NCBI GenBank assembly: GCA_014730235.1
Contig: WJIO01000421.1
Coordinates: 1-61,244, forward strand
Reading direction: 5' to 3'
From: Candidatus Poribacteria bacterium
GTDB lineage: Bacteria > Poribacteria > DTPJ01 > WJIO01
Length of the DNA: 61,244 nt
Shown: positions 7,440 to 58,779 of the stretch, one piece after another
Layout of the letters: each line of letters opens with the position of its first letter
Position numbering within the stretch: position 1 is the stretch's first letter
Made by a program: the position numbers and the translations under genes
The notes under the pieces: model-generated
The model's input: the letters and a program-made list of their open reading frames with translations, nothing else
Database searches by the model: none
What the model was told of the DNA's origin: nothing

Positions 7440-9356
7440 TTATTTTGCTATGGTGATCTTTTTTGTGGCGGCAAATTCGCCAGCTTTCAAGGTATAGAAA
7501 TAAACGCCGCTTGCCACACGCTCTCCTGTCTCGTTTGTGCCATCCCAACGTGCAGCTTTGTCTTTTGTTACATAAACGCCGGGTTCCTGACTTCCTAGTT
7601 TTATGGTCTTTATCAACTGGCCGTTTACGCTGTGTATATCTATAGATACTTCACCAGCCTGGGGTAGCTGATATGGTATCCAAACTTCCGGGTTTGCTGG
7701 ATTTGGGTAGCTGTCCAGAGCAGCGAATTCCAGGGTTGTTTTGGTTTGCGCTGCCGGAGCTGCTTTTGAGCCATGGGCAGGAATCAGATCAGGTGGGTCT
7801 TCCATGAATATCCTGAAATAGGGCCTACCCAGCCATACTTCTGTTCCACCGTCGCTATCTGTACCAAATTCCAGGTCACCCTGTGTAAAGGGATTACCTG
7901 TAGTAATAAAAAGCCCTACAGGTGATGAAACCATAGTACGAGCGCCGTAATTCAGAGGATTGCCAAATCCTGTTTGTGTTACCTGATACCATTTCCATCC
8001 GTTCCAGCTTTTCCACAGGTCAAAACCACCCTGGTTAGCCCATATAGAGGGCATCAGGTAATTTTCTAAAAGCTCTATAATGACCGGGGGCAATTCACCT
8101 ATATCTATAAGCTGTTGTAAAGCCGCTATATCCATAGGTAGATATACACTGGTTGAGTCAAGAACAGCGACATAAAGCCAACCTTCATGCTCTTCCATAG
8201 CCCATACATAACCGGCAAACAGGTTACCAAAACCGCCCTCTTTACCGCTTATGGGCCATTTTCTTCCCTGGTCTGTATCTACCTTGTCGCCGCAAACTAC
8301 CTGCCAGTAGCCGTTAGGCCATATCCTGGTGACACCCGGATATGTTCCCGGCGCGGGATTACCTTCGCCCACATACATTTTTCCCTTGAACGGTTGTAGA
8401 GTCATACCTAAAGGAATTTGCTGTCCTCGACCTGCGCCTCCTGTTATAATAGGTTCCCATTGATAAGGACGAACGCCGGTGGTTTTAGCTCTCCAGACTT
8501 CATATCCGTTAAAGTTAAATGTTCCCACATAAAGGTAATTTCTCAAAACAGCCATATCAAAAATACCAACGTTATCAAGATTACCAAAAGCAACCTCGCT
8601 GGCAGGTCTGAAAGTAATTGTATCACCTGCTACAGTACCCTCAAAGATTACCGGCACACCGCCTTCTGCAGATGCTGTATATAATTTGCCGTTATGGGAA
8701 ACCAAAGCCCTGTAAGAGCTTATATATCCACCAGGATCAGGGATTACGTCCCAATCAAATATAATTTCCATAGGTGTAAAGGTAATTCCGTCAGTTGTCC
8801 TGAGGATTCGCGCCGCCAGCCCGATTTCTGTAAAACCCCCAAAACCCAGAGGTGAGTTACCAATATAAAGCGCACCATCATGAACCACCATATCCCGATA
8901 GCCATGATCCAATGGCAGAGCAAACACTTCGGGATTATCGGGTGGATTTATAAATGGTGGGCCAATTTCCAGGTCTATAGTTTCTGACTTATAGGCCAGA
9001 CGCCACTGTTTGGTTGATGGTGTATATTCCCATACTTCAGCTCGCAGGTCTAATGCCAGGAGTTCCTGGAAAGTCTCTGGTATGATAACCTTGTTGTTCC
9101 CTCCCGGAGACTGACCCTGGCTGATAGCTCCGGATAATTCAAATATGTGCCTGCAAGTTCCTACATAAAACTTACCATTGAACCATGCACTCGACCAACC
9201 ATAACTATTCCCCGAATCGCCAATGCCATTGCCGGCAATCCTTTTAAAATCGCTAAAATACAGGGATCGGGAATAAACTTGAGAATAAGTTATAACGGTA
9301 AATAATAAGGTTAATAATAAAATTTTTAAAATACTTTTTGAAGATACCTTTTTCAT
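7440..9356 (-). CDS. Secreted putative beta-propeller protein with C-terminal FlgD-Ig / T9SS type A-like sorting domain
   Basis: Signal peptide, repeated G.LYVGT-like blades, C-terminal SYPNPANPEVWIPYQL..WDGTNETGERVASGVYFYTL.AG.FAATKKITI.K. Confidence 0.75.
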   Translation of the reverse strand: MKKVSSKSILKILLLTLLFTVITYSQVYSRSLYFSDFKRIAGNGIGDSGNSYGWSSAWFNGKFYVGTCRHIFELSGAISQGQSPGGNNKVIIPETFQELLALDLRAEVWEYTPSTKQWRLAYKSETIDLEIGPPFINPPDNPEVFALPLDHGYRDMVVHDGALYIGNSPLGFGGFTEIGLAARILRTTDGITFTPMEIIFDWDVIPDPGGYISSYRALVSHNGKLYTASAEGGVPVIFEGTVAGDTITFRPASEVAFGNLDNVGIFDMAVLRNYLYVGTFNFNGYEVWRAKTTGVRPYQWEPIITGGAGRGQQIPLGMTLQPFKGKMYVGEGNPAPGTYPGVTRIWPNGYWQVVCGDKVDTDQGRKWPISGKEGGFGNLFAGYVWAMEEHEGWLYVAVLDSTSVYLPMDIAALQQLIDIGELPPVIIELLENYLMPSIWANQGGFDLWKSWNGWKWYQVTQTGFGNPLNYGARTMVSSPVGLFITTGNPFTQGDLEFGTDSDGGTEVWLGRPYFRIFMEDPPDLIPAHGSKAAPAAQTKTTLEFAALDSYPNPANPEVWIPYQLPQAGEVSIDIHSVNGQLIKTIKLGSQEPGVYVTKDKAARWDGTNETGERVASGVYFYTLKAGEFAATKKITIAK

Positions 9357-9575: not shown

Positions 9576-11468
9576 CTACTTTGCTATGGTAATTTTCTTT
9601 GTAGCGGCAAATTCGCCAGCTTTTAGAGTATAGAAGTAGATTCCGCTGGTTACTCGCTCTCCTGCCAGGTTTGTGCCGTCCCAGTAGGCAGCTTTGTCTT
9701 TAGTCATGTAAACGCCGGGTTCCTGGTTTCCCAACTGTATAGTCTTTATCAACTGGCCGTTTACACTGTGGATATCAATTGATACTTCAGCGTTATAGGG
9801 AAGCTGATAGGGTATCCAAACTTCCGGGTTTGCAGGATTAGGATAGCTTTCCAGAGCAGCGAATTCCAGAGTTGTTTTGGTTTGTGCTGTCGGAGCTGCT
9901 TTTGAACCATTGGTGGGAATCAGATCAGGCGGATTTTCCAGTAAAATTCTGAAATATGGTCTACCCAGCCACACTTCTGTTCCGCCTTCATAACCCATGT
10001 TATAGGCTGTATCACCCTGGGTAAAGGCGTTGGCGGTACACAGGAAAAGTCCTTCAGGTGATGATGTAAAGGAGCGAACACCATAGTTTAATGGATTGCC
10101 AAAACCTGTCTGGGAAATCTGGTACCACTTTCTGCCGTTCCAGCTTTTCCAAAGGTCAAAACCACCCTGGTTGGCTCTAATGGACGGTATGGTGTAATCT
10201 TGTAATAATGATCCAAGAATAGGTGGAAAGTCCGGTATATCTGAAAAGTCTATATAAGGTAGGAATGAACTGGTTACGTCATAAGTACCGGCATAAAGCC
10301 AGCCATCATGCTCTATCATGCGCCAGACATATCCTGTAAAAATGTTATCGAAGCCGCCCTTCATGCCGCTGATTGGCCATTTCCAGCCCACTCTATCTCC
10401 GCAGACTATCTGCCAGTAGCCATTGGGCCATATTCTTATTAAGCTGGGATAAGTTCCGGGAATTGGCATAGGCATACCTGTGCCTACATACATCTTGTTT
10501 TTGAATTCATACATACTCAGCACTGCACCGGCCATCTCTCCGCCGCCAGCGCCGTTTTCTATTATCCTTGTCCAGTTATATGGACGACCACCACTAACGT
10601 CAGACCTGTAGACTTCATAACCGTTGTAATTCATGGTACCGGCGTATATACAGCCTCTCATTTTTGCCAGGTCAAATATACCGGTGTTATCCGGGTTGCC
10701 AAAAGCGGGAAAACTTGCTGGTCTGAAAGTGGCCGTATCACCTTCTATAGTGACTTCAAAGACTATAGGTGTGCCACCTTCTGCTGGTGCTGTATAGAAT
10801 TTGCCGTTCAACGGAACCAGAGACCTGTAAGAGCTTATGAAACCTGCAGGTTTAGGCATTACATCCCAGTCAAAGACAATATTCATAGGTGTGAAGTTTA
10901 CGCCATCGGTGGTCTTGAGTATTCGGGGAGTAAGACCATACATGGATAACATTCCAAAACCTACAGGTACAGTCGTAATATAGAGCGCTCCATCATGAAC
11001 CAGCATTGCCCGATAACCATTATCCTTTGGGATCATGACTTGTGTTGGTGGAGTTGCAAAAGGAGGCCCAATAACAACAGGTTCTGGCGTAGTTTTAAAT
11101 GCAAGTCTCCACTGTTTTGTATTGGGTGTATACTCCCAAATTTCCCCGGCCAGGTCCAGTGATATTAGCTCTTCAAAAGATTCCGGCACATCTACGTTTG
11201 GAGCAGGCATTCCCATAAGGGACATCATTTCCAACACATAGCGTTCTGTCCCCACATAGAGCTTACCTTTAAACCATGCGCTGGACCATCCGTAGCTGTT
11301 GCCGGGATCGCCGAAACCGTTTTCGCTGATTTTTGTAAAATCACCTCTATACAGAGACCTGGCATAAGTTAGTTGGTTGGTTGACAATAAAAACAGAACA
11401 ACGAGGGCAAATGTCAACAACAATCCCATGCGATTTTTCCATATTTTTCGCAATTTCTTCTCCTCCAT
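9576..11468 (-). CDS. Tandem paralog: secreted beta-propeller protein with FlgD-Ig CTD
   Basis: Colinear with 7440-9356 (NSYGWSSAWF.GK.YVGT, GGFDLWKSWNG.KWYQ) with a near-identical C-terminal domain. Confidence 0.75.
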   Translation of the reverse strand: MEEKKLRKIWKNRMGLLLTFALVVLFLLSTNQLTYARSLYRGDFTKISENGFGDPGNSYGWSSAWFKGKLYVGTERYVLEMMSLMGMPAPNVDVPESFEELISLDLAGEIWEYTPNTKQWRLAFKTTPEPVVIGPPFATPPTQVMIPKDNGYRAMLVHDGALYITTVPVGFGMLSMYGLTPRILKTTDGVNFTPMNIVFDWDVMPKPAGFISSYRSLVPLNGKFYTAPAEGGTPIVFEVTIEGDTATFRPASFPAFGNPDNTGIFDLAKMRGCIYAGTMNYNGYEVYRSDVSGGRPYNWTRIIENGAGGGEMAGAVLSMYEFKNKMYVGTGMPMPIPGTYPSLIRIWPNGYWQIVCGDRVGWKWPISGMKGGFDNIFTGYVWRMIEHDGWLYAGTYDVTSSFLPYIDFSDIPDFPPILGSLLQDYTIPSIRANQGGFDLWKSWNGRKWYQISQTGFGNPLNYGVRSFTSSPEGLFLCTANAFTQGDTAYNMGYEGGTEVWLGRPYFRILLENPPDLIPTNGSKAAPTAQTKTTLEFAALESYPNPANPEVWIPYQLPYNAEVSIDIHSVNGQLIKTIQLGNQEPGVYMTKDKAAYWDGTNLAGERVTSGIYFYTLKAGEFAATKKITIAK

Positions 11469-11470
11469 AA

Positions 11471-11974
11471 TTATTGCTTAATTGATTTCATAGCTTGAGC
11501 AATATAAGCTATATGACTCATCTCCTCTTTGATAACCTGTTCCACTTCCTCCTTTCCGAGATTTTCGGGAACCATTTCTTTCATTCCAAGATAAAAAGCA
11601 ACGGAATCTTTTTCCACAGTCATTGCAGTCTGAAGAATATCCTCCATAGTTTCTTTACCGGTAAAATTTTTGGATGGATCTTCTTTGGTGTTGAATATAT
11701 GACCATCAGCTATAGCGTTTAGGTATAAGGCTGTTAAATTATCTCTGTCAAAATTAGGATCTACTACAGGAGTTTCATTTTGTTGAACTGCTTTTGCATG
11801 CATGTCAGCAAAAATTTGCCTGTGTTTTTTTTCCATATTGGCCAGAAGCTCCAGTAGTTTACGGCTTTCGGAATCTTTTGTTAATTCAGCAGCCCGGGTG
11901 TAAAATTTTTCACCGTTGATTTCTATACGTTCTGCTATTTCATATATCTCATCAGCATTGAATTTTATGCTCAT
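11471..11974 (-). CDS. Rubrerythrin/erythrin-like ferritin-fold diiron protein without rubredoxin domain
   Basis: Two E...ExxH-type half sites (AERIE..GEKFY...MEKKH; AMTVEKDS..FY...EEMSH). Confidence 0.8.
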   Translation of the reverse strand: MSIKFNADEIYEIAERIEINGEKFYTRAAELTKDSESRKLLELLANMEKKHRQIFADMHAKAVQQNETPVVDPNFDRDNLTALYLNAIADGHIFNTKEDPSKNFTGKETMEDILQTAMTVEKDSVAFYLGMKEMVPENLGKEEVEQVIKEEMSHIAYIAQAMKSIKQ

Positions 11975-12049: not shown

Positions 12050-12538
12050 CTATTCACGCTTGCCTAACTGTACGTCCAGCATAATCATGCCGTTGCCGGA
12101 ATCACCAATGCGTTCCAACCATTCGACAATTTTAGATACGCTGGCTTCTTCTTCCACCTGTTCGGTAACAAACCACTGGAGCATAATACCCGCAGGTTTG
12201 TCGTCTTCTTCAGCAGCCAGGTCAACCAGATCGTTGATTCTTCCAGTTATATATTTTTCATGCTCGTAAGCGGCTTTGAAGGCATCCAGAGCCGAATCCC
12301 AATCAGACTGAGGCTGTTCAATAGCTTTTAACATGACCCTTCCGCCTCGTTCAACTATATGACCATATATTTTCATGGCATGGCCCATTTCCTCTTTTGC
12401 CTGGGCCTCCATCCACTTTGCCATACCTTCCCAACCACCGGCATGGAAACATGTGGCCATGGAAAGATAGATATAATACGAAAAGAGTTCGGCATTAATC
12501 TGATCGTTAAGAGCATCCTGCATTTTTTGTCCTATCAT
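12050..12538 (-). CDS. ftnA: Non-heme ferritin
   Basis: LNDQINAEL.S.Y.YLSMA, EEMGHA.K, WFVTEQVEEE ferroxidase motifs. Confidence 0.9.
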   Translation of the reverse strand: MIGQKMQDALNDQINAELFSYYIYLSMATCFHAGGWEGMAKWMEAQAKEEMGHAMKIYGHIVERGGRVMLKAIEQPQSDWDSALDAFKAAYEHEKYITGRINDLVDLAAEEDDKPAGIMLQWFVTEQVEEEASVSKIVEWLERIGDSGNGMIMLDVQLGKRE

Positions 12539-12562: not shown

Positions 12563-13159
12563 TTATGTTTTTATGGGTTCTGAGAATTTTTTTACAGCCT
12601 CTGAACCCAGTTCAAACGCTTCTTTCAGGGCATCACTGTTTTCCAGTATGGCCCCTTTTTTATCAACTCTTCGATAGAAAAGTCCTCCTTCGTAGCTCAT
12701 ATCCAGAGCATCAAAGAAGTATTTTGCGGTTAATTCAACACCGGTAAAAAGATTGCTTCCTCTGGTCGCCCCTACGGCGATCAGATAGCCTTTACCGCTG
12801 TCGTAGTGTTTTCTTTCTTCTTTTGTCTTTTCCAGCATACGCTTTGCCCACATAGCCTGACATCGGTCAATCAGCAGTTTGACCTGTGCGCTCATATCGT
12901 AAAAGAATATGGGAGAAGCAAGAATTATTATATCCGCAGCCTGAATTTTCGGGTATATTTCCTGCATAGGGTCTTTGACAACACATTTACCGGTTTTATC
13001 ACATCCGCCGCATTCCCTGCATCCGGAGATATCCAGTTTTCGGGCATATACAGCTTCCACTTCAGCACCGGCGGCTTTTGCACCTTCTAAAGCCTTATCC
13101 AGAAGTATATCGGTATTTCCTCCTTTACGAGGACTTCCATAAATTCCTAATAATTTCAT
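12563..13159 (-). CDS. Iron-sulfur flavoprotein / NADPH-dependent FMN reductase family
   Basis: GSPRKGGNT FMN loop; compact CxxCxxCx5C motif (CRECGGCDKTGKC); ASPIFF. Confidence 0.85.
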   Translation of the reverse strand: MKLLGIYGSPRKGGNTDILLDKALEGAKAAGAEVEAVYARKLDISGCRECGGCDKTGKCVVKDPMQEIYPKIQAADIIILASPIFFYDMSAQVKLLIDRCQAMWAKRMLEKTKEERKHYDSGKGYLIAVGATRGSNLFTGVELTAKYFFDALDMSYEGGLFYRRVDKKGAILENSDALKEAFELGSEAVKKFSEPIKT

Positions 13160-13170: not shown

Positions 13171-13287
13171 GGTTCTTCCGGGTTCAGTGTGGTAATAATT
13201 GAAAATTCTCTTAGCTTGTCATTCCTGCTTTCGCAGGAAACAGCATAAAAAGTTTCTTATCTTTACCACACTAAACCCAGAAGAACC
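13171..13287. mobile_element. Intact ISL3-like MITE (117 bp)
   Basis: 25-bp terminal inverted repeats GGTTCTTCCGGGTTCAGTGTGGTAA (23 of 25 match), flanked by GATTTTTTT on both sides; internal GTCATTCCTGC remnant. Confidence 0.85.
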
Positions 13288-13339: not shown

Positions 13340-13915
13340 TTACATTTTGTCGTTGAAGAACAGATAATCGCTGTCTTTCGCGCCTTTATGGCAGGCTATA
13401 CAGCCAGCATCCATACCTTTTGCGACTCTACCGGCCATGGCCATACCTTTTGGGTTCTTATCAAGAGAACCGTCAGCCAGGTATTTGGCCCAGAACCAGT
13501 CGTTGTTGTCAGGATCATAACCTTTCTTTTGCTGGAGCATAATGGTAACTGCCGCAAGGTATTTCTGAGGGTCTTTTGCCACGTCTTCCATGGAAAGCTT
13601 ATTACCTGATTTATCTTTGCCCATGTAGTTATCTTTTATTATGATGTGATATGGTGTTTCATTAACGGTGACTACACCATAAAACATTTTCAGATAAGCT
13701 CCATGAGGTGACTGACCGAGATATACATCGGTCTTGAAAGGCCAATCGGTATAACCTTTCATGGCTTTCCAGAGCTTTTTAGCAAATTCCACATCATCTT
13801 CAGTACCAAAAGGCATAGTCATTTTTTCTTCACCAACTACATACTGGGGTACTACTGCAAGAGAAAGGGCCAGAACCAGTATAAAGGCTGATAAGGATAC
13901 GATAAGAGACTTCAT
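13340..13915 (-). CDS. Periplasmic cytochrome P460 / cytochrome c'-beta family protein
   Basis: Signal peptide, G.SPHG, IIIKDNY, NDWFWAKY and a single C-terminal CxxCH (CIACH). Confidence 0.75.
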   Translation of the reverse strand: MKSLIVSLSAFILVLALSLAVVPQYVVGEEKMTMPFGTEDDVEFAKKLWKAMKGYTDWPFKTDVYLGQSPHGAYLKMFYGVVTVNETPYHIIIKDNYMGKDKSGNKLSMEDVAKDPQKYLAAVTIMLQQKKGYDPDNNDWFWAKYLADGSLDKNPKGMAMAGRVAKGMDAGCIACHKGAKDSDYLFFNDKM

Positions 13916-13948
13916 TTTTTACCTCCGGAATTAGTGGTTTGTGTATGA

Positions 13949-15244
13949 TTATCTTAGAGCAAAGACCTCATAATGGATTTTGCTCTTTTCCGCACCGAGG
14001 GACAGAAGATGATTTTCCACCGATGTCATCATAGGCGGTGGACCGCACAGGAAGAACTGAGTATCCTGAAAATCTTCTACATATTTTCGGATTATATCGG
14101 CATCAACATAGCCTTTTTCTCCATGCCAATCTTCCTGTTCCGACATCACATGAACTACTTTTAAAGATGAAATCTCTGATTCTATCTTCTGTAACTCTTC
14201 TCTGAAAACAATATCCTGATCAGTTTTATTTCCCCAAATTAGAGTAACACGCCTCTCTATACCTTTTTCATGAATATACCTAAGCATGCTCATAAAAGGG
14301 GTTATACCTATACCACCGGCGATAAAAATCAGGTTTTGCGCGTCATGGTTTAAAAAGCTAAAAACGCCGTAAGGTGCATCTATATAGGCTTTATCTGACA
14401 CTTCTGTGTCTTTTATTGTGGAGGTAAAATCACCCACAGATTTAACGCTAATGGAAAGCCGATCCATTGTGGGACTTGCTGAAATAGTAAAAGGATGGGA
14501 TTCCGAAGTCTTGCCGTTCCTTATTAGATTGATAATCATAAATTGCCCGGGTTTGTAGTTGGGTTTATCGCCATCAAAGTAGAGACTCCATGTATCATGG
14601 CTTTCCTGAACTACATCGGAAACTTTGTAGGGGTTTCTTACCACCCTTATCCTGTTAAATATCCTGTATATTGGCACAGTTAGATAAATACCCGCCAGCG
14701 CCAGCCAGTATATCTTCAAGGGAGTCCAACCATACTGAAAATCAGTACCCAGAAAAAAGCTGTGCAAAAAAACCAAAGGGAATATTACATAGCCAACCCT
14801 GTGTATATTTTTCCATGTTTCATATTTTATGCTGATCCTGCTGTATAAAATAGCCGCTCCGGCGGTGACAATCATTATAGAAAGAGCAACTATACCCACG
14901 ATTTTCCAGGGTGGAAAACCCGGTATGTAACCTTGTATAAAAGGACCAACGTAAAGCAAGGCCGGGTGTATAAGGATCAATATAAGTCCTATTATACCGG
15001 TTTTACGGTGTAACGCAAGAAGCTTATCCATCCCCATTCCCCGCTCTATAAACCTCAATCTGGAACTCATAATATATTGAAAAAGCAGAAATATGAACCC
15101 AACCAAAGCCAACATTCGCGCTGCTTCTGTCATTATGGAAATATAATAAGGTTCATAAAGCCGGGGGATCATGTCTTGAACCCAGAAGATCAAAGGAAAT
15201 ATTATAAATAAACCCATTATAATCAGCAGAACTGACCGCTTCAT
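13949..15244 (-). CDS. Ferric-reductase-like transmembrane (heme b) domain fused to an FNR-type FAD/NAD(P) domain
   Basis: About six hydrophobic helices with four conserved His (LHRK, IHP, IHRV, LHS); HPFTIS, FIAGGIGITPF, FLCGPPPM, C-terminal E.F. Confidence 0.85.
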   Translation of the reverse strand: MKRSVLLIIMGLFIIFPLIFWVQDMIPRLYEPYYISIMTEAARMLALVGFIFLLFQYIMSSRLRFIERGMGMDKLLALHRKTGIIGLILILIHPALLYVGPFIQGYIPGFPPWKIVGIVALSIMIVTAGAAILYSRISIKYETWKNIHRVGYVIFPLVFLHSFFLGTDFQYGWTPLKIYWLALAGIYLTVPIYRIFNRIRVVRNPYKVSDVVQESHDTWSLYFDGDKPNYKPGQFMIINLIRNGKTSESHPFTISASPTMDRLSISVKSVGDFTSTIKDTEVSDKAYIDAPYGVFSFLNHDAQNLIFIAGGIGITPFMSMLRYIHEKGIERRVTLIWGNKTDQDIVFREELQKIESEISSLKVVHVMSEQEDWHGEKGYVDADIIRKYVEDFQDTQFFLCGPPPMMTSVENHLLSLGAEKSKIHYEVFALR

Positions 15245-15924
15245 TTCCCATCACCAACTTTAATTTTCTCATTGTTGCTCAGAGATGTAACATAAGTTGT
15301 AAGAGCAACCATCTCTTCGCTGTCCAGCTTTAGGGATTTTCCTTCCATAATCATTGATATACACATGTTATTCATCATGGACAAAGTAATAACGCGTTTT
15401 GCCGATTCTTTGAACTTGGGGAATGTAGCCGCTGCACCTTTTAGGGTGGGTATTTTCATATCCATCATCTGTCCACCGGTGGTTTCACCGTTGGGATGAC
15501 AGCTATTACAGCTTGTTCCAGTTGTTCCCAGTTTGGTATCGTTGAATAGGGCTTTACCTTTTGCAATAACTTCAGCTATGGGATCATTAATACCTTCGGG
15601 TTTGGATTTTGGGTCACCGGGATGAGTGTTAGCAGCAAATTCCTTGTCATTGGTGTACCCGTCTTTATCGGAATCCAGCTTGGCCAGTTCGTCAACGTAC
15701 CTATCCCCGGATTTCATGGCAATATTGCGCCAGTCTTCACCAAAATCATTACGTTTTCCGCCGCCTTTGGGATTTTCATGACATGTGCCGCATCCAAAAC
15801 TTTCACCCTTATCCGGGAGTCTACCCAATCGGAAAGGTCTACCTGAAACAACAGAAATTAAAGTCAGGGTAAAAACAATACACGTAGTGATTGCGATAAT
15901 ATACTTTTTTGATTTACTTTTCAT
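15241..15924 (-). CDS. Periplasmic diheme c-type cytochrome (N-terminal CxxCH plus DxDxDG domain; C-terminal TsdA/SoxA-like domain)
   Basis: Signal peptide, CGTCH and CNSCH, DSDKDG motif, TL..MNN.C...M.G..L..DSEEM.AL..Y segment; ATGA overlap with the next gene. Confidence 0.75.
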   Translation of the reverse strand: MKSKSKKYIIAITTCIVFTLTLISVVSGRPFRLGRLPDKGESFGCGTCHENPKGGGKRNDFGEDWRNIAMKSGDRYVDELAKLDSDKDGYTNDKEFAANTHPGDPKSKPEGINDPIAEVIAKGKALFNDTKLGTTGTSCNSCHPNGETTGGQMMDMKIPTLKGAAATFPKFKESAKRVITLSMMNNMCISMIMEGKSLKLDSEEMVALTTYVTSLSNNEKIKVGDGK

Positions 15925-15938
15925 AAGTTCACTCCTAT

Positions 15939-18500
15939 TTACTTTGTTATAAAATGATAAATATCCCTTCCTTCGGACAGAATTTGGAATATAACGGCTG
16001 ATGTTATAGTTGCTGATGTAACGGCGTCAGTCTTTGCATCAAAATCAAAGGGTTGCAGTATTGATCGACCAATAACATTATTCCGCATTTTTTGCACGTC
16101 TTCCTCACTCCAGACTTTGTTTCCATACTTTGTAAGGTGTATCGGTTCAAAGGCTATGACCTTACCTTTTTCATCAAAGGCATAGATAAATTGTATCGCA
16201 TGACATATGTCACAGACCGATTCTTTGTTAGCGACAACAATGTAATATCTTTTATTATCGCTTATTGTCTGATAGACTTTATTTTCATCTTGTGTAGGAA
16301 CGGATTCTTTCTCTACGATTATTCCCTCATCTTTCGTTATGCTGACAAAAACTTCTTTAACTTTGTTATACAAAGCCTTTCCTGTTAGTTTAAATTCCGT
16401 ATATTCAACAAAATCCTGGGATTTAATCCTATCCTGTTCCTGCTGTACTATTTCATCCTTGTATTCCAATACCCGTTTGATTTCACCCAGATAAGATTCA
16501 TACGATCTTATCAGACCCACATGGGCCTCTACCGCCACCAGATTTCCATTTATATTTCGTCTGAGAGTTACGGTGTATGGGGTTCTAATAGAGTTAGCCA
16601 GAGCTTTATATGTTGAAAAATCCGGGTCGGGCATTATTGGATAAGGTACATTACGTTTTTCCTTGAAATCATCCACTTCGTTCTGATTGTTGCCTACACC
16701 TACGCCTATTATTTTTATGCGGTTTACCAGTTCTGAATCATTTTGTATAGCTGAAAAAAGCTGATTAAATATAGGAGCCTGCATCTGGCAACTGGGACAG
16801 TATACGTTCATAAACTCAAGTATAACTATATCTGCCTTTGCTTTATTTAATACAGGTCTAGCTCCTTCTTCAAGCCCCAAATAGTTTTTTTCCTCATCGT
16901 TTAACTGAGAAATATCAATAGATGCAAAACCCTCCAATTTACCTTCCTCTACAGGCATACTGATACTGGTACTTTTTTCTACCAATTCGGGAAAAGTTTC
17001 TGCATTTCCAGTACCCTCGGATATTGAAGCAAACATATCCTGCAAATTGCTGTTAAGATTCCACCAACCGTTCTTAAAAGAGGTATAATCCGGCGCTCCG
17101 GTCATGGCTGAAGCGTAGCGAATGGAATTGGTATAAAACAACCACTGGCGCATCCATTTATGTTCTATGGATTCATCGAAGGGGTTGCTGTTATCAGCCA
17201 GCTTTGCATCCCAGGCTTTTTGCATGAGTTCGGTGGAAGTTTTAATCATCAGGTCAGTTTCTGCGATAGTCTTATACATCTTTCCAAAATGGGCTGTTAC
17301 CCATGTAGAACCGTGACAGGATTTGCAGATATTTTCCATTTCTCTCTGGCGCTTGGTCTGTTCTTCCTCGTCCAGCAAAAATTCCGATGCAAACTCACCG
17401 TCAAAAGTTACCGGAAGAGGTAAGCCATCTTTATTTTTAATCTCATAGGTTTTCCCGCTTTTGGGTTGAGGATGGGAATATATAAGGCCGAAAATTCTTA
17501 CCCATAATCTTTCCCCAAAGTCATGAGTTCTTTCGGCTATGGTTCTGCCCTCAGAAGTTACGACCATGCTGTTATGACAGACAGAACAGGTAGGCGCGCT
17601 GAAATGTTTGCCCAGTTCCCAGGGAACCTGATCCCACTGCCATTCATCATGCTTGGAGTTGTATATATTGCCGTGTTTGCTTTCGTTATAAACGTTCCAG
17701 GCCGGAACATCCGGTTCCAGGTGACACTGAGAACAGGTGTGAGGTTTTCTGGCAATTTCTATGGAAAAACTGTGGCGAGGGTGACATGCGGTACATGCCC
17801 CACGAGTTCCATCCGGATTTATCCTTCCCACACCTTGATTCGGCCAGTTGCTGAATACCGGCAGTTTCATTTCACCCACATCAGTATAGACTTCCTTCAT
17901 CCAATCCACCCGGACTTCAGTTCCATGGCAGGAGTAACAGGTCTCCTGTTTTGTGGAGTCGCTGGCCGGAAGACGGTGCATCATATCATTGTTAAATTCC
18001 CTTAAGCCTGTAGTTGTTTCCACAAGGCTGTGAAATACAGGATTTTCCCGCAGGTTATCCAGGGCATGGGCTTTTTTGCTACCCGTAAACTGATCCACCT
18101 CTGTCGGATGGCATATCTTACAGTCACCGGGGGAAACAATTACATTTATGGGAACGCCGGCATGCTCAAAGTTATCAGTATGATCCTGAGGGTTGAGGCC
18201 ATGACATTCATAACATCCAACGGCTACGGATTTAAGTTCGTCAGGTACGCTTTCGGCTGAGAACCTGCGTTGATTTTCCGGAAGGTTCATGGCCTGCTCC
18301 GGGGTCATTCTGGCATGCCTGCTGTTTCGCCAGTCCTCTATTATGCCCGGAGAATAGTTTATATGGCACTCTATACAAATTTCTGTATCTTCGCTGAGGG
18401 GTGGACTCGTCACGGATTCTTCCGATTGGGCATATACCAGGACTGTAATTATTACTAGGGATAAAAATGCCGCTAATGTTACTATCCGTGATGTTTGCAT
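15939..18500 (-). CDS. Octaheme hydroxylamine oxidoreductase-family cytochrome fused to a TlpA/redoxin domain and an FMN-binding domain
   Basis: Eight CxxCH motifs with WPNQGVGRINPDG, RHSFS...AR.P..C and ESKHG; then FMNVYCPSCQ thioredoxin motif; then a ninth CxxCH (CDICH) and DAVTSAT. Confidence 0.85.
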   Translation of the reverse strand: MQTSRIVTLAAFLSLVIITVLVYAQSEESVTSPPLSEDTEICIECHINYSPGIIEDWRNSRHARMTPEQAMNLPENQRRFSAESVPDELKSVAVGCYECHGLNPQDHTDNFEHAGVPINVIVSPGDCKICHPTEVDQFTGSKKAHALDNLRENPVFHSLVETTTGLREFNNDMMHRLPASDSTKQETCYSCHGTEVRVDWMKEVYTDVGEMKLPVFSNWPNQGVGRINPDGTRGACTACHPRHSFSIEIARKPHTCSQCHLEPDVPAWNVYNESKHGNIYNSKHDEWQWDQVPWELGKHFSAPTCSVCHNSMVVTSEGRTIAERTHDFGERLWVRIFGLIYSHPQPKSGKTYEIKNKDGLPLPVTFDGEFASEFLLDEEEQTKRQREMENICKSCHGSTWVTAHFGKMYKTIAETDLMIKTSTELMQKAWDAKLADNSNPFDESIEHKWMRQWLFYTNSIRYASAMTGAPDYTSFKNGWWNLNSNLQDMFASISEGTGNAETFPELVEKSTSISMPVEEGKLEGFASIDISQLNDEEKNYLGLEEGARPVLNKAKADIVILEFMNVYCPSCQMQAPIFNQLFSAIQNDSELVNRIKIIGVGVGNNQNEVDDFKEKRNVPYPIMPDPDFSTYKALANSIRTPYTVTLRRNINGNLVAVEAHVGLIRSYESYLGEIKRVLEYKDEIVQQEQDRIKSQDFVEYTEFKLTGKALYNKVKEVFVSITKDEGIIVEKESVPTQDENKVYQTISDNKRYYIVVANKESVCDICHAIQFIYAFDEKGKVIAFEPIHLTKYGNKVWSEEDVQKMRNNVIGRSILQPFDFDAKTDAVTSATITSAVIFQILSEGRDIYHFITK

Positions 18501-18715
18501 ACTATTAACCTTTCAATACTTGGGGATTCTTACTTTATGTATGTAAACGGCATGTGATAAAAGATTCAAAAGAGCACACTAACACTGTTTAAAGCCCTTG
18601 ATGAATTATCTTTGGACATATTGTCTCATATATTTAACATATTTTCAATATTAATTTTCCAAGCTTCGGATATCAGATGCTTATTTTTTTTTGGGGATCT
18701 TAATTTGAAAAATTT

Positions 18716-18879
18716 GGCTCTTCCGACTTGAGTGGGATAAAGATAAGAAACTTCTTTATGGTGTCATTCCTGCGGAAGCAGGAATCTAGTCTTTATGCGC
18801 ATCTACTGTATTCCTACTTCTGCAGGAATGACAAGCTGAGAGCATTTTCAATTATTACCACACTAAACCCGGAAGAATC
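18716..18879. mobile_element. ISL3-like MITE with long GTCATTCCTGCGGAAGCAGGAATC...GCAGGAATGAC core
   Basis: GGCTCTTCCG left end, CCGGAAGAATC right end, 8-bp direct repeat AAAAATTT on both flanks. Confidence 0.8.
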
Positions 18880-18886
18880 AAAAATT

Positions 18887-26545: not shown

Positions 26546-26664
26546 GGTTCTTCCGGTTTTAGTGGGGTTATAATTGAAAATCCTCCCAGCTTGTCATTCC
26601 TGATTTCGCAAAATGACATTATAAAAAAGTTTCTTATCTTTACCCCACTCAAGCCGGAAGAGCC
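26546..26664. mobile_element. Intact ISL3-like MITE
   Basis: GGTTCTTCCGG ... CCGGAAGAGCC ends, perfect 8-bp flanking repeat AAAAAATG, decayed GTCATTCC core. Confidence 0.85.
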
Positions 26665-26760
26665 AAAAAATGGAATAAAACTATACTTTTATTCTGTTTT
26701 AAAATCGATTCTAATCAAAAGGCTTTGAACATAAATAAAAATATAAAAACGGAGGAAAAA

Positions 26761-27429
26761 ATGGAAGAAAGCAAAGGTATGCTCTTGATTGGGGACAAAG
26801 CTCCCAGTTTTGAGGCTTCAACATCACATGGAACTATAAACTTTCCAGAGGATTACAAAGGCAAATGGGTAGTTCTGTTCTCTCATCCTGCCGACTATAC
26901 ACCAGTATGTACAACGGAATTTGTAGCTTTTGCCAAACGTAACGACCAGTTCCAGGAATTGAATACGGAGCTTGTTGGGCTTTCTATTGACCAGGTATTC
27001 TCCCATATCAAATGGGTAGAATGGATCAAAGAAAATCTTGATGTTGAAGTTCCCTTCCCAATCATTGCTGACAACACAGGCAGTATAGCCGCTAAGTTTG
27101 GTATGCTTCACGCCGAAGCATCTGGCTCTCAGACAGTCCGGGCAGTATTCGTTATTGACGACGAAGGTATAATCAGGGCGATAATCTATTATCCTTTGAA
27201 TATCGGTAGAAATATGGACGAAATAGTAAGGTTGGTAAAAGCTTTACAGACTTCCGACGAAGCGGAAGTAGCTTTACCGGCAAACTGGCCAAATAACGAA
27301 CTTATTGGTGACCATGGAATAGTGCCTCCTGCAACTTCTGAAGAAGATGCTAAAAAGCGTCTTGAGGCGGCTGAAGCCGGTGAAATGGAATGTTTTGACT
27401 GGTGGCTCTGCCATAAGAAAATAAAGTAA
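26761..27429 (+). CDS. Peroxiredoxin, Prx6-type with C-terminal CxDWWxC
   Basis: [14 protein letters not shown] peroxidatic motif, GRN..E..R, C-terminal CFDWWLC; GGAGG RBS before ATG 26761. Confidence 0.9.
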
Positions 27430-30732: not shown

Positions 30733-32655
30733 TCAGGGAAAAGGTTGATAAATAGTGGTATCCAGAGCCACGCCGATTATGCTCCATATGCTTCCTATTG
30801 TCAGATCGCCCAGGGCAAGGCCGAGAAACAGCGGAACTGAACGGCGATATAGTTTAAGGCCTCCGTATTTCAGGATGATCCACTTGGCCATGTAGCTTGC
30901 AAAGAAGCAACTCCAGAGGTTATACATGCCCCAGTCGCCAGCCATAGCATATCCCAGGGGATGAAAGGGAAACCATAGGAATCTGGTTCGCAGGAATGTG
31001 AGCGCGGATGCTATTAAAAATCCCACACCCATAAAGATAGTTCCTATACTGTTGGGTTCGGTAGGATAATATATCCAGTTTTGCAGTCGGGAGTATGTTT
31101 CATTACCAAGACCAAGGGTCCAGGGGCCGAAATATCCCGATGAAGCACCGGTTTTATAATATAGATGCAGGTAAATCCAGAAACAGGCTATCACCGTTAC
31201 AAAAGCCGATAGCACTATACCCAGGGACAACCTTCGGGAGCGATATCCCGAAAGATTAGTCATCTTCATACCCTCAAGCATGTGGGGCATAGGATGACTT
31301 CTGTAAGTCCGGTTAAAGAAGCTATACATGGCAAAGGCTGTCAGGGAATTCTTACCGATGCGCTGACTGCCAAGAGCTGTTATCATCATCTGTCGGGGGT
31401 TAAGACCACTCAGGCTGTGTACGCTGAGCCCCAACTCGGCCCGCATTCGGGTAATGAAGGTGGCGATTAGATAATACATTAAAAAAAAGATTGGGATCAT
31501 ATATATGGACATACCGATCCTGGATGAAAATACAGAGAGAATAATAAGACCAACCACAAAACCAATAACAGCTGTTCTATAGGATAAAGGTTCATCAGAA
31601 TCTTCATGAGGTACAGGTTTAAAAACCCTTATGATAACATTTTTCAAATGTTCCCGACCCATCCACAGACTGAAGATAATCACACTTACCACAGCACCAA
31701 AGGCCTGCTCGCTTTGATACGGGAAATTGGGTAGACTCCTGAAACCCACCAGTCCACCCACCATTAACTCCGCCTTGTAAAACCAGTAAAACGACCAGCA
31801 CGACAGCAGTAAATCTATAGGTATAAGAAAGCTCATACCGATAACAAAGGGATAGAAAGAAAGTCTGACACCTCCCATAAGACTCCAGGGCCTTTCAGTA
31901 AGGCCTGCCAGATTTCTGCGCTTTACTGGAATTTCCGGTATAGTTGGAACAAAATATTTCAGGCCGTTCACGACGCTTATAAAAGCCGCTATGCCAAATC
32001 CTATCCACATTAGTTTATTTCTGAAGAATTTGCTCTTTTCGGTAGTCATTTCCAGGGGAAGCCGTATCATGGGATATGTAAGCTTTTCCCGTTCTGTCCA
32101 TTGCTTTCGCAGGATACTGCAAAGACATAACATGGTAAAAACCAGAAGTGTAATAAAACCAAGCCATATTAAAACTGGTAAAACCCAGGGCTTTATATTT
32201 CGCCAGAAATAAAGGCTTGACGAACCTTTGTAGTAACCCTCCAGAGCCGTTTCGTCATTAACTACCAGATACCGAGGTAAGTTGTCCCAGATCAATTCCT
32301 TCCACTCATTTTCTGGCGTGGCAAAGTAAAAAGCATGTCCCATATTGGAAACCAGTATCTGAAGCATATCTATAGAGGCCAAACCTGAAGATACACTGAG
32401 CATTACATAAATAGTAATAAGCTCCCCCTGGTTCAATACTGTCCTCTTAAAGACTTTCTCAGAAAACAGGTTAAACAGGAAGGCAAACAGGAAGATAAAA
32501 ACTACATTGAAAAACGGAATTATCAGCGTGGGATGGGTATACCTGACGACTTCCAACTGGGCAATCCAATAGACGTTGATCGGTATAAGCAATATGCTGA
32601 GTATTATGGCTCTGAAACCTATGGTTCGTTGATTCGATGTAGAATTGCCTTTCAT
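30733..32655 (-). CDS. DUF6785/DUF6784-type polytopic membrane protein (putative OPT-like transporter)
   Basis: ELITIYVM, YFATPENEW, LRKQWTEREKLTYP, RMRAELG, HPMPH.LEG.K, PFHPLGY, FLGL.LGD motifs; many TM helices. Confidence 0.75.
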   Translation of the reverse strand: MKGNSTSNQRTIGFRAIILSILLIPINVYWIAQLEVVRYTHPTLIIPFFNVVFIFLFAFLFNLFSEKVFKRTVLNQGELITIYVMLSVSSGLASIDMLQILVSNMGHAFYFATPENEWKELIWDNLPRYLVVNDETALEGYYKGSSSLYFWRNIKPWVLPVLIWLGFITLLVFTMLCLCSILRKQWTEREKLTYPMIRLPLEMTTEKSKFFRNKLMWIGFGIAAFISVVNGLKYFVPTIPEIPVKRRNLAGLTERPWSLMGGVRLSFYPFVIGMSFLIPIDLLLSCWSFYWFYKAELMVGGLVGFRSLPNFPYQSEQAFGAVVSVIIFSLWMGREHLKNVIIRVFKPVPHEDSDEPLSYRTAVIGFVVGLIILSVFSSRIGMSIYMIPIFFLMYYLIATFITRMRAELGLSVHSLSGLNPRQMMITALGSQRIGKNSLTAFAMYSFFNRTYRSHPMPHMLEGMKMTNLSGYRSRRLSLGIVLSAFVTVIACFWIYLHLYYKTGASSGYFGPWTLGLGNETYSRLQNWIYYPTEPNSIGTIFMGVGFLIASALTFLRTRFLWFPFHPLGYAMAGDWGMYNLWSCFFASYMAKWIILKYGGLKLYRRSVPLFLGLALGDLTIGSIWSIIGVALDTTIYQPFP

Positions 32656-32763: not shown

Positions 32764-34683
32764 TCAATTCCAACCAGCCCCGGATGAGGGCATGTAAACC
32801 TTAAACACAAGGCTGACTATACTCCATATACTCCTCAATGTAAAATCTCCCAGAACAAGACCCAGGAAGAAGAATGTGGCCTTACGGTGGGTTTTTATGC
32901 CGCCATATTTCAGGATTATGGACTTAATCATCCAGCTTACCATTACCGGAAACCAGAAATACACCATTCCACCCCACGCGCCGCCAGAAAGGACGTAGCC
33001 CGATGGATACAGGGGCCACCACAAAAAGCGTGTGCGCATAATATGCAAAAAGGTCACAAACAAAAATCCCCCGCCCATGAACTGCAAGGCTTTTACATCC
33101 GTTCCCTGGGGATACTGAAGCCAGGCCTGGAGAGGGTTATAGACTTCCCATCCAGCATTACCTATCCAGCCCTGAAGCCTTCCCAGCGTGCCGTAATGAT
33201 ATGTAAAATGAAGGTATGACCAGAAACTTGCTATGGCCCCAAATCCAACGGCCAGAAGTATAGCCTGAACCAGTCTTTTGTTGTTCATTCCTGTTCGTTC
33301 CGCTATCTTAAAGGCTTCTATCTGGCATGGCATAGGATGGGCCCGGTTGCACCTGTTGAAGGGGTAGATGAAAGACATGATAGTAAGATTGTTTCCAAGA
33401 AGTCGCCTTGAACCGAACATCTGAACCATAATACCCCTGGGGTTGATACCAACAACCTCGTGATAAGGAGGACCTAATTCAGCCCTTACCCGGGCTATAG
33501 CTATGGCGAAGAGTATATATATAGCAAAGAAAACTAGTATGGCCCATATAGACATACCAGCGAAACGACAGAACAGCACAAGAACCAGAAGACACACAAC
33601 AAGCATGATTGCGGCTGTCCTGTAACGCATAGGCTCTTTTGAATCGTCCATCTTCTCTAAACCTAACAGGTGCTTGCCAAAGGCCACAAGATGCCGACGG
33701 GCAAGCCATAAGGCAATTAGTGCAACACCTATCCAGGCTCCTGATGCCCTTTCGTTAAGATACAGTTGATTCCATCCTACAGCAGATGCAAACACCCTCT
33801 CAAACCTTGTAAGCCAGAAGAAGAACCAGCACGAAAAGGACAGGTTCAGTGGCATAAAGTACGTAAGCCCCACAATACCAAGATTGAAAAACAGTGTGAC
33901 ATAACCGATGGCGTTCCAGGGTTTTTCGGTGACGAACTGGTCTATCCTGTATGTATAGGGAATAGAAGGCACGGCAGGAACAAGGTCGTGTATGCCATTG
34001 AAAAACCTTATAGATCCAGCCACGGCCAGACCTATCCACATGAGCTTTGTCTTATAAAACTTTCGATCTGCTGCCATAGCCAGGGGAAGCTGGATTATGG
34101 GATAGCTGAGTTTTTCGTTTTCCGTCCATTGTTTCCGCAGGATGGAACTGATGCACAGCAGGGAAAAGTAAAGAAAGAAAATAAAAGCCGACCACACCAT
34201 AACCGGCACAAGCCATGCTTTCATGTTTTCCATTACATGAAAACCCGATTCGCCGGTAAAATAACCTGACAATACATCCATATCCGAAACTGTCATCCAT
34301 GATGGTATATACTGCCAGAATAAGCTCTGCCATTCGTTTTCCGGTGTTGCAAACCAGTAGGGCTGTGTTAATGTTGCCAGCAGCGGCGTCATGGTTGTGT
34401 GGCCCGATATAGTAGATACCATAGTAACCATGACATATATGACCAGAAGTTCAGCCGGCGACAGGGCCAGCTTGCTGGAAATCCTGCGGAGGAAAAATCC
34501 TACCGTGATCAAAAAAGTGAGGGTAAAAATAGCGTTGGAAAAGGGATTTACCAGCGTAAACATGCAGTACCACTGCTCGCTGGATATTCCCACCCAATAT
34601 GCATTTATAGGCACCAGTATAAGACCCAGGATGATGGCCCTTAAAGTTATATCATCCCGACCCGATTTTTCGCTGTAGTTCAT
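32764..34683 (-). CDS. DUF6785/DUF6784-type membrane protein, paralog 2
   Basis: Same motif series (WFATPENEWQ, QWTENEKLSYP, RVRAELG, HPMP.Q.EAFK, FFLGLVLGD). Confidence 0.75.
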   Translation of the reverse strand: MNYSEKSGRDDITLRAIILGLILVPINAYWVGISSEQWYCMFTLVNPFSNAIFTLTFLITVGFFLRRISSKLALSPAELLVIYVMVTMVSTISGHTTMTPLLATLTQPYWFATPENEWQSLFWQYIPSWMTVSDMDVLSGYFTGESGFHVMENMKAWLVPVMVWSAFIFFLYFSLLCISSILRKQWTENEKLSYPIIQLPLAMAADRKFYKTKLMWIGLAVAGSIRFFNGIHDLVPAVPSIPYTYRIDQFVTEKPWNAIGYVTLFFNLGIVGLTYFMPLNLSFSCWFFFWLTRFERVFASAVGWNQLYLNERASGAWIGVALIALWLARRHLVAFGKHLLGLEKMDDSKEPMRYRTAAIMLVVCLLVLVLFCRFAGMSIWAILVFFAIYILFAIAIARVRAELGPPYHEVVGINPRGIMVQMFGSRRLLGNNLTIMSFIYPFNRCNRAHPMPCQIEAFKIAERTGMNNKRLVQAILLAVGFGAIASFWSYLHFTYHYGTLGRLQGWIGNAGWEVYNPLQAWLQYPQGTDVKALQFMGGGFLFVTFLHIMRTRFLWWPLYPSGYVLSGGAWGGMVYFWFPVMVSWMIKSIILKYGGIKTHRKATFFFLGLVLGDFTLRSIWSIVSLVFKVYMPSSGAGWN

Positions 34684-46567: not shown

Positions 46568-46660
46568 TCATGCCTGAAAATATGTAAACCCTTTTTTTCA
46601 TTATGCGTTTTAAGAAGTCGTAAGCAAAGATAATTCCCTAACTTGATCAGGAGTTGTATA

Positions 46661-58114: not shown

Positions 58115-58779
58115 TATTCTGACTCCTCTCTGCTTCCAATCAAAACTTTACCTGGTTTATCAACTTTTTGATGGTTACGGGGTGGATAGTATTTTTTCAT
58201 GGAATCCAATTTCCCCAGTTCCTCAAGACGTTTATAGATAAGAGTCCACGCACAGTCTTTTTCTGGATCTTCCTCACATTTACCATCGTTTGTTCCACCA
58301 CACGGCCCGTTAAGCAATCCTTTGGCACATTTGGTAACAGGACAAATTCCGCCTGTATATGCGATTACACAGTCACCACACTGCTGGCACACTTCGGCAA
58401 ATAGACCGAATTCTCCGCCCTCTTTGCCAATAAACAGGGTATCCAGGGCCGGATATGTGGGTTTATCCGAAAAAGAAGCCACAGTCTGAGTACCAAAAGC
58501 GCAGGCCATAACCAGAATGGAATCGGCTTTTTCAATTTTATCGGCCTGATCCTTCAGGGCATCATTAGTTAAATCGTCGCATGTAGTGGGTATAACCATC
58601 CAACCTACAACTTCTTTTCCTGCTTCCTGGAGCTTTTCCTTCATCTCCAGGACTTCATACTTGCCGCCGGTATGGCACATAGTGGCACATGTCCCGCAGC
58701 CTATAATATATACTTTTTCGTCTTTTTCAAGACATTCCTGAATTTGATCAAAGCTTTTCTGCTCTGTAATAGTCTTCAT
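58114..58779 (-). CDS. metV: Methylenetetrahydrofolate reductase small Fe-S/Zn subunit (MetV)
   Basis: GC.TCA..C..GG...V, CA.G.Q, CQQCGDC......GGICPV..CAKGLLNGPCGG..DGKCE......CAW; overlaps the metF start. Confidence 0.88.
   Translation of the reverse strand: MKTITEQKSFDQIQECLEKDEKVYIIGCGTCATMCHTGGKYEVLEMKEKLQEAGKEVVGWMVIPTTCDDLTNDALKDQADKIEKADSILVMACAFGTQTVASFSDKPTYPALDTLFIGKEGGEFGLFAEVCQQCGDCVIAYTGGICPVTKCAKGLLNGPCGGTNDGKCEEDPEKDCAWTLIYKRLEELGKLDSMKKYYPPRNHQKVDKPGKVLIGSREESE

Follow-up and report, generated by a model that had tools for sequence, protein, structure and literature searches.

The window analysed here, a stretch of 61,244 nt from Candidatus Poribacteria bacterium (contig WJIO01000421.1, assembly GCA_014730235.1), carries at positions 13340-18500 a block of four genes, designated A to D. 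The original prediction for this block, made from the DNA sequence, described four co-oriented, tightly spaced genes, and this is borne out in detail: the four open reading frames (ORFs) lie in one orientation on the minus strand, have limits falling exactly at 13340-18500 in the ORF listing, and are spaced by 14 nt (A-B), a 4-nt ATGA overlap (B-C) and 33 nt (C-D). Ribosome-binding sites (AGGAG and GGAGG) are present upstream of B and D, and each of A, B and D has a single N-terminal hydrophobic segment, which fits secretion. The domains called in the original prediction (an HAO fusion, a dihaem cytochrome, a haem-b/FNR protein and a P460/c'-beta protein) were likewise recovered by Pfam and Protein Data Bank (PDB) matches, although it overlooked the thioredoxin CxxC and the flavin mononucleotide (FMN)-binding domain of A, and the conserved downstream genes beyond 13340-18500. 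The genes, their domains and the putative promoter are:

15939..18500, minus strand: gene A, a secreted 853-residue fusion of three domains (octahaem HAO-like, thioredoxin-like and FMN-binding-like), from the ORF listing
17001..18413, minus strand: octahaem HAO-like domain of A, IhOCC clade, residues ~30-500, with eight CxxCH motifs (PDB 4qo5, E=7e-124)
16521..16868, minus strand: thioredoxin domain of A, ResA/CcmG/TlpA-type, with invariant C568-P-S-C571 (Pfam AhpC-TSA and Thioredoxin)
15942..16403, minus strand: predicted FMN-binding domain of A, RnfG/NqrC-like, residues 700-853 (Pfam, motif and Foldseek)
15241..15924, minus strand: gene B, a secreted dihaem cytochrome c of 227 residues with two CxxCH motifs, overlapping C by 4 nt
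15595..15843, minus strand: N-terminal Temptin_C-like monohaem domain of B, with C45xxCH and a TSP3-like Ca-binding motif (Pfam Temptin_C, 31.7 bits, cut-off 27)
15244..15579, minus strand: C-terminal SoxA/TsdA-like haem domain of B, with C139xxCH143 and invariant Cys188 (profile search)
13949..15244, minus strand: gene C, a prokaryotic NOX-type flavocytochrome b of 431 residues (Pfam, SpNOX alignment and motifs)
13340..13915, minus strand: gene D, a secreted monohaem protein of 191 residues (Pfam PF16694 Cytochrome_P460, 32.6 bits, cut-off 27)
18620..18648, minus strand: putative sigma-70-type promoter with extended -10 (TTGAAA-17-TGaGACAAT), upstream of A (consensus scan)

The promoter architecture T[AG]TTGAAA[AT]-N15-TG[AG]GA[AC]AAT occurs upstream of A both in the window and in four other loci (L002, L004, L005 and L006). 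It is an architecture only, as comparison of the upstream regions of nine loci gave no clear palindrome of a Fur/PerR-type operator before A or B. A consensus scan for intrinsic terminators returned no more sites than in shuffled sequence, and the hairpin downstream of D is followed by an A-run instead of a T-run; the 3' end of the operon is therefore not set by a canonical terminator. ORFs with CxxCH motifs across the 61-kb window comprise A, B, D and a sulfatase with one chance motif, ruling out a NapC/NrfH/c554-type partner in the window and upholding the prediction that no c554/cM552 or NapC-type protein is present.

Gene C encodes six transmembrane (TM) helices, visible as six hydrophobic peaks in the first 200 residues, with two bis-His haem sites (residues 1-200) and a cytoplasmic flavin adenine dinucleotide (FAD)/NAD(P)H domain (residues 205-431), which Pfam resolves into Ferric_reduct, FAD_binding_8 and NAD_binding_1. 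Its best solved relative is the NADPH oxidase (NOX) SpNOX (8qt6, E=7e-25, aligned over residues 48-428). The motifs HPFTI at 250 and GIGITP at 311 are present in all 15 aligned homologues, as are the four histidines of the bis-His motifs H79-x13-H93 and H148-x12-H161. Judged by its sequence, C passes every published NOX filter (FAD, NADPH and double bis-His; Hajjar 2017, PMC5676040), the last of which looks for two H-x12/14-H motifs in TM3 and TM5 of a domain with six helices, separated by 20 residues or more. SpNOX has an unusually exposed outer haem and reduces cytochrome c directly under anaerobic conditions, and the role and physiological acceptor of bacterial NOX homologues have been described as unknown, with the proviso that the acceptor may be a protein (PMC5676040, PMC11564096).

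Relatives of C offer a view of what such an acceptor could be. Many of the closest (53-63% identity) are longer proteins with cytochromes fused at the N-terminus: the haem domain fused in P0132 and P0159, and likewise in locus L009, is the Temptin_C-like domain found at the N-terminus of B, whereas P0207 and P0225 carry three cytochrome c domains, and in locus L010 a relative of this three-domain kind is followed by a gene for a five-haem protein. In L009, a signal peptide, a haem domain and a low-complexity linker leading into TM2 stand in place of TM1 of C, a layout that places haem c on the periplasmic face beside the outer haem b. In addition, about 20 metagenome loci pair a monohaem protein resembling the N-terminal domain of B (115-127 residues) with a membrane protein of 200 residues made up solely of a ferric-reductase domain (FRD). 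These pairs (L106-L136, for example L122 5861-6880 and L133 3903-5723) lack an FNR domain and have unrelated neighbours (FHA-GAF, MFS, SHMT), and the Temptin_C-like cytochrome with its FRD-only partner may represent an undescribed minimal transmembrane module linking haem b to haem c.

The C-terminal domain of B belongs to Pfam PF21342 SoxA/TsdA (62.8 bits, cut-off 27), and a profile of five B sequences retrieved SoxA 1h31 (E=6e-9) and TsdA 4wq7 (E=4e-8). Invariant Cys188 of B aligns with the axial ligands Cys96 of TsdA and Cys114 of SoxA, and His143 with His53 of TsdA; the second haem of B is probably His/Cys ligated and of low potential. A second SoxA/TsdA-type haem domain was not found in B, the other domain being Temptin_C-like, and the window contains no SoxX-like gene. 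Pairwise alignment with TsdA puts Ser, Arg and Met in B at the positions of Arg82, Arg85 and Arg92, which we take to be thiosulfate-binding residues, and the substitutions are in that respect suggestive only. B was also considered as a homologue of the anammox dihaem cytochrome Kustc0457, a candidate that was rejected when neither B nor its profile matched the 6h5l chains at E<=0.01.

To follow the gene set across genomes, loci were collected from the contigs of full-length A homologues, from species-representative genomes scanned with a C profile and from metagenomes scanned with a B profile, and B was de-replicated at 90% identity to give 16 lineages. As these loci lie on fragmentary metagenome contigs, a gene reported here as absent is absent from the available flanks. 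C directly follows B in 14 of the 15 evaluable lineages, and the 4-nt B-C overlap of the window recurs in L005/L090, L008/L097, L091, L092, L094, L096 and L103. A precedes B in six of the 16 lineages (the window, L002/L089, L004, L005/L090, L091 and L092), and D follows C in three (the window, L005/L090 and L103), with a remnant in L092. One other lineage (L005/L090, about 60% identical in amino acids) has the exact order A-B-C-D, and L092 has it with a decayed D, indicating that the arrangement is not due to chance. The genes thus do co-occur elsewhere, which disposes of the possibility, raised with the original prediction, that they never do; the four-gene set it proposed recurs, but is not obligate. 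The system is modular, not fixed, and B-C is its tight unit. One further locus (L105) has P460-like, SoxA-like and NOX-like genes within 8 kb, interspersed with unrelated genes, and was counted as weak support only.

The adjacency of B and C, the cytochrome fusions, the FRD-only pairs and the reduction of cytochrome c by SpNOX together make it likely that B, through its N-terminal domain, is the physiological acceptor of C. Adjacency, fusions and SpNOX activity also lend support to the original proposal that a ferric-reductase TM/FNR protein passes electrons to periplasmic cytochromes without quinone. Alternatively, C could be a true superoxide-producing oxidase, employed in signalling or antagonism, in which case the cytochromes and the neighbouring genes against reactive oxygen species (ROS) would protect the producer and no electrons would pass from C to B. 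SpNOX does make superoxide in vitro (PMC5676040), and a SodN gene lies upstream in both L002 and L005. However, the periplasmic haem c fusions and the translational coupling of B and C are hard to explain without direct transfer, and the context suggests an oxygen-sensitive lifestyle (an MTHFR/NuoF-like cluster and an Isf-like gene, both described below), so that we regard an oxidase as highly improbable.

Transfer from C to B being the preferred reading, B might itself be the catalytic end of the chain. Under a sulfur-based explanation its Cys-ligated haem would act in a TsdA-like manner, B-C would be an NAD(P)H-driven reductase of tetrathionate, polysulfide or persulfide, and A and D would be add-ons. 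This would agree with the alignment of the second haem domain of B with the catalytic domains of TsdA and SoxA, including the axial Cys, with the self-sufficiency of B-C in many lineages, and with a protein fusing CoA-disulfide-reductase, rhodanese and TusA domains that is encoded in L103 (3804-5729) after B-C-D and a rubrerythrin-like gene and may point to a connection with persulfide or sulfur stress. Against it stand, as a suggestion only, the differences from TsdA at its arginine positions, the absence of other consistently adjacent sulfur-metabolism genes and the nature of the constant neighbours, which are ROS and iron genes. We consider this explanation unlikely.

If B passes its electrons on, the proposed recipient in the window is A, a link favoured by the adjacency of A and B in six lineages and by the conserved promoter before A. 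For A, ten full-length homologues were found at 57-65% identity. The octahaem domain satisfies the description of the HAO/IhOCC family in having eight CxxCH motifs in HAO order, all invariant across the 10 homologues, and in its similarity to solved members, the best of which is Ignicoccus hospitalis IhOCC, with HAO, HDH and HAOr far more distant (E=1e-9 to 4e-17). The alignment with Nitrosomonas europaea HAO spans residues 232-310 only and stops short of the position of the cross-linking tyrosine, which we infer to be absent from A because A falls in the IhOCC clade, a clade without the P460 haem (PMC9250108). Relatives of about 500 residues consisting of the HAO-like domain only are widespread at ~60% identity. 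The two cases examined are an orphan gene and a gene with a rubrerythrin neighbour, the latter being a Poribacteria orthologue which the rubrerythrin gene follows, and such settings fit a non-respiratory role. In metagenomes the label 'hydroxylamine oxidase' is routinely given to genes of this clade, and their genomic context argues against using them as nitrification markers.

The two extra redox domains of A are present in only about ten protein clusters. A model of the thioredoxin domain has its best Foldseek matches among proteins of the ResA (1su9, E=1e-7), DsbE, CcmG and FetE types. The C-terminal ~150 residues are predicted to form an RnfG/NqrC-type FMN-binding domain, an assignment that draws on the Pfam match, a sequence motif, Foldseek and the apbE neighbourhood of relatives. 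The stretch D825-A-V-T-S-A-T831-I-T-S is invariant in the homologues, and within it T828-S-A-T831 fits the [S/T]GA[S/T]-like motif for flavinylation by ApbE quoted by Meheust et al. (PMC8238504). Modelled separately, the domain has RnfG 9eri_G as its top Foldseek match (E=0.01, prob 1.0, TMq 0.57; the next at E=0.19), while a sequence-profile search of the PDB with it produced chance-level matches to thioredoxin reductases at E=0.3 only. In L169 and L170 a secreted thioredoxin-FMN protein homologous to the C-terminal half of A is encoded directly after apbE, and it is only to this standalone module that apbE is adjacent. The thioredoxin-FMN(CxxCH) gene of these loci (L169 4392-6552, L170 3668-6534) appears to be split by frameshifts and has small secreted proteins of 133-141 residues encoded upstream. 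A further C763-x-x-C766-H767 (window 16200-16214) lies within the FMN-binding-like domain of A and is kept in nine of the 10 homologues and in the standalone relatives; the exception, with His changed to Asp, is the P0011/P0244 lineage, where the A gene has no partner genes. This motif may be a ninth haem site or a redox or metal-binding CxxC, and the C-terminal domain as a whole may combine haem c with covalent FMN. A is a rare protein joining eight (perhaps nine) haems, a predicted covalent-flavin domain and a thioredoxin, and could connect one-electron haem chains with two-electron thiol chemistry outside the cytoplasm.

D, judged from its Pfam match and profile, is a distant member of the P460/c'-beta family. 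Its CxxCH is at residue 172 of 191, close to the C-terminus, and the only PDB chains matched by a D profile are of P460 and c'-beta type, with weak scores (E=0.02-0.2) and an alignment that spans the haem motif region, not the position of the cross-link Lys. Orthologues are found in L005/L090 and L103, and a 67-residue C-terminal remnant follows C in L092 (2798-3001), suggesting ongoing loss of D there. A 143-residue ORF after C in L004 was examined as a possible D and rejected, not being D-like (E=0.09).

Taken together, we favour, with a probability of roughly 0.6, a reading in which the block encodes a quinone-independent electron-export chain that runs from C through B to A (and D) and serves as a periplasmic reductive defence or repair module. 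In C, FAD would accept two electrons from NAD(P)H in the cytoplasm, and these would travel singly over the inner and then the outer haem b to the periplasmic face, where B would act as the dedicated acceptor of C by docking its N-terminal monohaem domain on the outer haem. Within B, electrons would move from the N-terminal haem c to the low-potential His/Cys haem of SoxA/TsdA type and from there to A, a putative periplasmic multi-cofactor reductase. The octahaem IhOCC-type domain of A would reduce small oxidants, whereas its covalent-FMN domain would turn one-electron haem chemistry into two-electron reduction of the CxxC and the thioredoxin dithiols; D would be an optional accessory haem protein for small ligands of N-oxide type. 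Such a module would clear reactive oxygen or nitrogen (possibly sulfur) species, or repair oxidised periplasmic thiols, at the cost of cytoplasmic NAD(P)H. Candidate substrates are H2O2 or O2; NO, hydroxylamine or nitrite at the octahaem site; disulfides or sulfenic acids at the thioredoxin; and sulfur species at the Cys-ligated haem of B. We infer the direction of electron flow, the role of B as the bridge to A, the flavinylation of A and the substrate from the domains, motifs, topology, synteny and fusions described above. A more specific version remains tentative: that NOX homologues of this clade are non-oxidases and form the entry of a hitherto unrecognised DsbD- and quinone-independent path leading through haem b, haem c and a covalently flavinylated (possibly haem-plus-FMN) domain to a periplasmic thioredoxin dithiol and an octahaem site, with A converting between one- and two-electron chemistry for thiol repair and oxidant removal.

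Electron export via NOX-type proteins is electrogenic in the depolarising direction. Export of this kind dissipates membrane potential and conserves no energy, which points to defence or repair and not to respiration. This bears directly on a further alternative, in which A would reduce nitrite or hydroxylamine in a dissimilatory fashion and the operon would be an energy-conserving, respiratory or ammonifying branch of N-oxide reduction. The IhOCC/HAO clade has been described as nitrite-reducing (PMC9250108), and the P460/c'-beta family of D binds NO and hydroxylamine. A chain entered through a NOX-type protein could not conserve energy, however, the 61 kb contain no quinol dehydrogenase, Pfam scans of the window ORFs revealed no other N-cycle genes, and the HAO-only orthologues stand alone or beside a rubrerythrin gene. 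We therefore consider respiratory N-oxide reduction very unlikely.

Several observations weigh against the export chain as we draw it. The Pfam FMN_bind match of A (E=0.002, 19 bits) falls below the 22-bit cut-off, the structure models of A are of moderate confidence (pLDDT 66-67), and no apbE gene or ApbE domain was found in the sizeable ORFs of the window or in loci L001-L006. At least five lineages have B-C without A; in L094, L096 and L008/L097, where 6-8 kb upstream of B-C were searched, A was not found, and murB and a BNR protein gene are located there instead. L002/L089 has A and B but no C, and L001 and L006 have A without B, C or D. With A and B-C found apart in this way, there may be further donors for A and further acceptors for B-C. 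Most relatives of C below ~50% identity (Syntrophomonadaceae, Chloroflexota, the candidate phyla radiation (CPR) and DPANN) have no cytochrome adjacent, limiting the inferred acceptor to this clade of bacterial NOX proteins. A candidate ApbE/FMN-binding cluster downstream of C in the Syntrophomonadaceae relatives was rejected, the genes there encoding an amidohydrolase, a butyrate-kinase-like protein and a phosphotransacylase. The neighbouring genes would also suit an iron-related role.

These neighbours, together with a repeat element at the 3' edge of the block, are:

12563..13159, minus strand: Isf-like FMN reductase gene with a CxxCxxCx5C motif (Pfam FMN_red; motif read from the sequence)
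12050..12538, minus strand: ferritin gene (Pfam Ferritin, E=1e-41)
11471..11974, minus strand: gene for a rubrerythrin-like or ferritin-like di-iron protein (Pfam Rubrerythrin and Ferritin_2)
13171..13287, no strand assigned: intergenic inverted-repeat element with 46-nt arms, between D and the FMN reductase gene

Downstream in 10 of the 16 lineages come the genes for the Isf-like FMN reductase (after B-C or A), ferritin and the rubrerythrin-like protein, which are the most constant companions of the system. L005 additionally has its SodN gene upstream, and the L002 cluster reads Fur-family regulator, rubrerythrin, desulfoferrodoxin, SodN, A, B, Isf-like, ferritin, rubrerythrin-like. The original prediction had proposed reduction or detoxification of reactive nitrogen or sulfur species; a quinone-independent reductive module is what we also favour, but the constant downstream genes move its likely role towards oxidative-stress or iron defence. 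The original observation of the locus is confirmed and the original interpretation partly supported.

Iron handling proper would be a different matter. On this account C and B would reduce Fe(III) or its chelates for uptake or storage, with the thioredoxin and flavin domains of A taking the part proposed for FetE-like and FMN-binding proteins in P19-type uptake. C is indeed a member of the ferric-reductase domain superfamily, the most constant neighbours include ferritin and a ferritin-like protein, the L002 cluster is headed by a Fur-family regulator, the thioredoxin domain of A is similar to FetE 8t4c, and MsrQ-like, FMN-binding and thioredoxin-like proteins have been tied to iron assimilation (Meheust 2021, PMC8238504). 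Yet none of the loci examined has an adjacent iron transporter (FTR1/P19, VIT1, Feo or TonB type), the SodN, superoxide reductase and rubrerythrin genes of L002 and L005 speak for ROS, SpNOX reduces ferric iron poorly in vitro (PMC11564096), and an octahaem HAO-type catalytic domain would be superfluous for reducing iron. We find iron handling improbable and retain the reductive defence or repair chain.

Copies of the intergenic repeat stand on either side of the four-gene block. Its core, CGGGTTTAGTGTGGTAA, occurs nine times in the window against 0.11 expected, with copies at 768, 2418, 4231, 13171-13287, 18737-18880, 23048 and 26554-26656, and some copies consist of 46-nt inverted arms enclosing an inner hairpin, resembling a miniature inverted-repeat transposable element (MITE) or a repetitive extragenic palindromic (REP) sequence. 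A 1-Cys peroxiredoxin gene (26725-27429) lies between two copies of the repeat. Elsewhere in the window, a cluster at 57224-61192 encodes methylenetetrahydrofolate reductase (MTHFR), a MetV-like DUF5981 protein, a NuoF-like flavoprotein and a 2Fe-2S/4Fe-4S protein, and is similar to the electron-bifurcating methylene-tetrahydrofolate reductase clusters of anaerobes. Three paralogous membrane proteins of ~640 residues (30733-32655, 32764-34683 and 44648-46567) combine DUF6785 with DUF6784, and a fourth homologue adjoins the HAO-only gene of a Poribacteria metagenome-assembled genome (L086). Downstream of the rubrerythrin-like gene are two paralogous proteins of ~630 residues with type IX secretion sorting domains (7440-9356 and 9576-11468), and a LysM/SprA-like protein of 2297 residues is encoded at 46643-53536. 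The organism appears to have a type IX secretion system, and sulfatases and LamG proteins are numerous, in keeping with Poribacteria-like genomes.

The original prediction did not recognise the gene set as a described system, and in the papers covered by full-text searches neither a NOX-cytochrome c operon nor the fusions nor an HAO-thioredoxin-FMN protein is described, which is not proof of novelty. The FMN-binding domain and the thioredoxin CxxC of A nevertheless connect the locus with the MsrQ-like flavinylation systems proposed on bioinformatic grounds (Meheust 2021, eLife), so that its logic is not wholly undescribed. In those systems, which we compare together with MsrPQ/Fre, a PF01794 membrane cytochrome, often with a PF00175 NAD-binding domain, is proposed to carry electrons from NAD(P)H to an extracytosolic FMN-binding protein, and here C has PF01794 and PF00175 and is encoded in one operon with the FMN-binding-domain protein A. 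MsrQ-like clusters contain apbE, however, and are mostly actinobacterial, whereas the A-D locus has no apbE nearby, as scored in the window ORFs and L001-L006; in addition, the FMN domain of A is fused to a thioredoxin and an octahaem domain, and cytochrome c B lies between C and A. MsrQ itself is without an FNR domain and serves the molybdoenzyme MsrP.

The individual parts have their own counterparts. In its N-terminal 500 residues, A is close to IhOCC 4qo5, with eight haems. Among the reductive HAO-like enzymes (epsilon-Hao and the anammox HAOr, Kustc0458 with dihaem Kustc0457), HAOr has, like A, an adjoining gene for a dihaem cytochrome. The electron source differs, being of NOX type here as opposed to a quinol-linked or soluble anammoxosome system. 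B shares a Pfam family with TsdA and SoxA in its C-terminal domain, keeping the proximal His and axial Cys, but differs from them in its Temptin_C-like other domain, the lack of a SoxX and the non-conservation of several basic residues near the TsdA Cys. The thioredoxin domain of A has the CxxC of the ResA/CcmG type, a type reduced from the cytoplasm in DsbD/CcdA pathways; no DsbD or CcdA gene is adjacent to the A-D locus, and the fusion of the thioredoxin to a flavin domain and haems implies a haem-flavin route, not a thiol-disulfide cascade.

The closest likeness of C is to SpNOX and other prokaryotic NOX proteins (Hajjar 2017; Dubach 2024; Petit-Hartlein 2024), with which it shares six TM helices, two haems b and the FAD/NAD(P)H domain, and, at low sequence identity, all signature motifs. 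No partner of SpNOX is known, and the enzyme is regarded as an O2 reductase, whereas C is coupled to a dihaem cytochrome c and relatives of C are fused to cytochromes. The A-D locus and its relatives therefore offer a concrete candidate for the protein acceptor of a bacterial NOX, in the form of a cytochrome c that is translationally coupled or fused to it, and make the question of electron transfer from NOX to cytochrome testable with two or three recombinant proteins.

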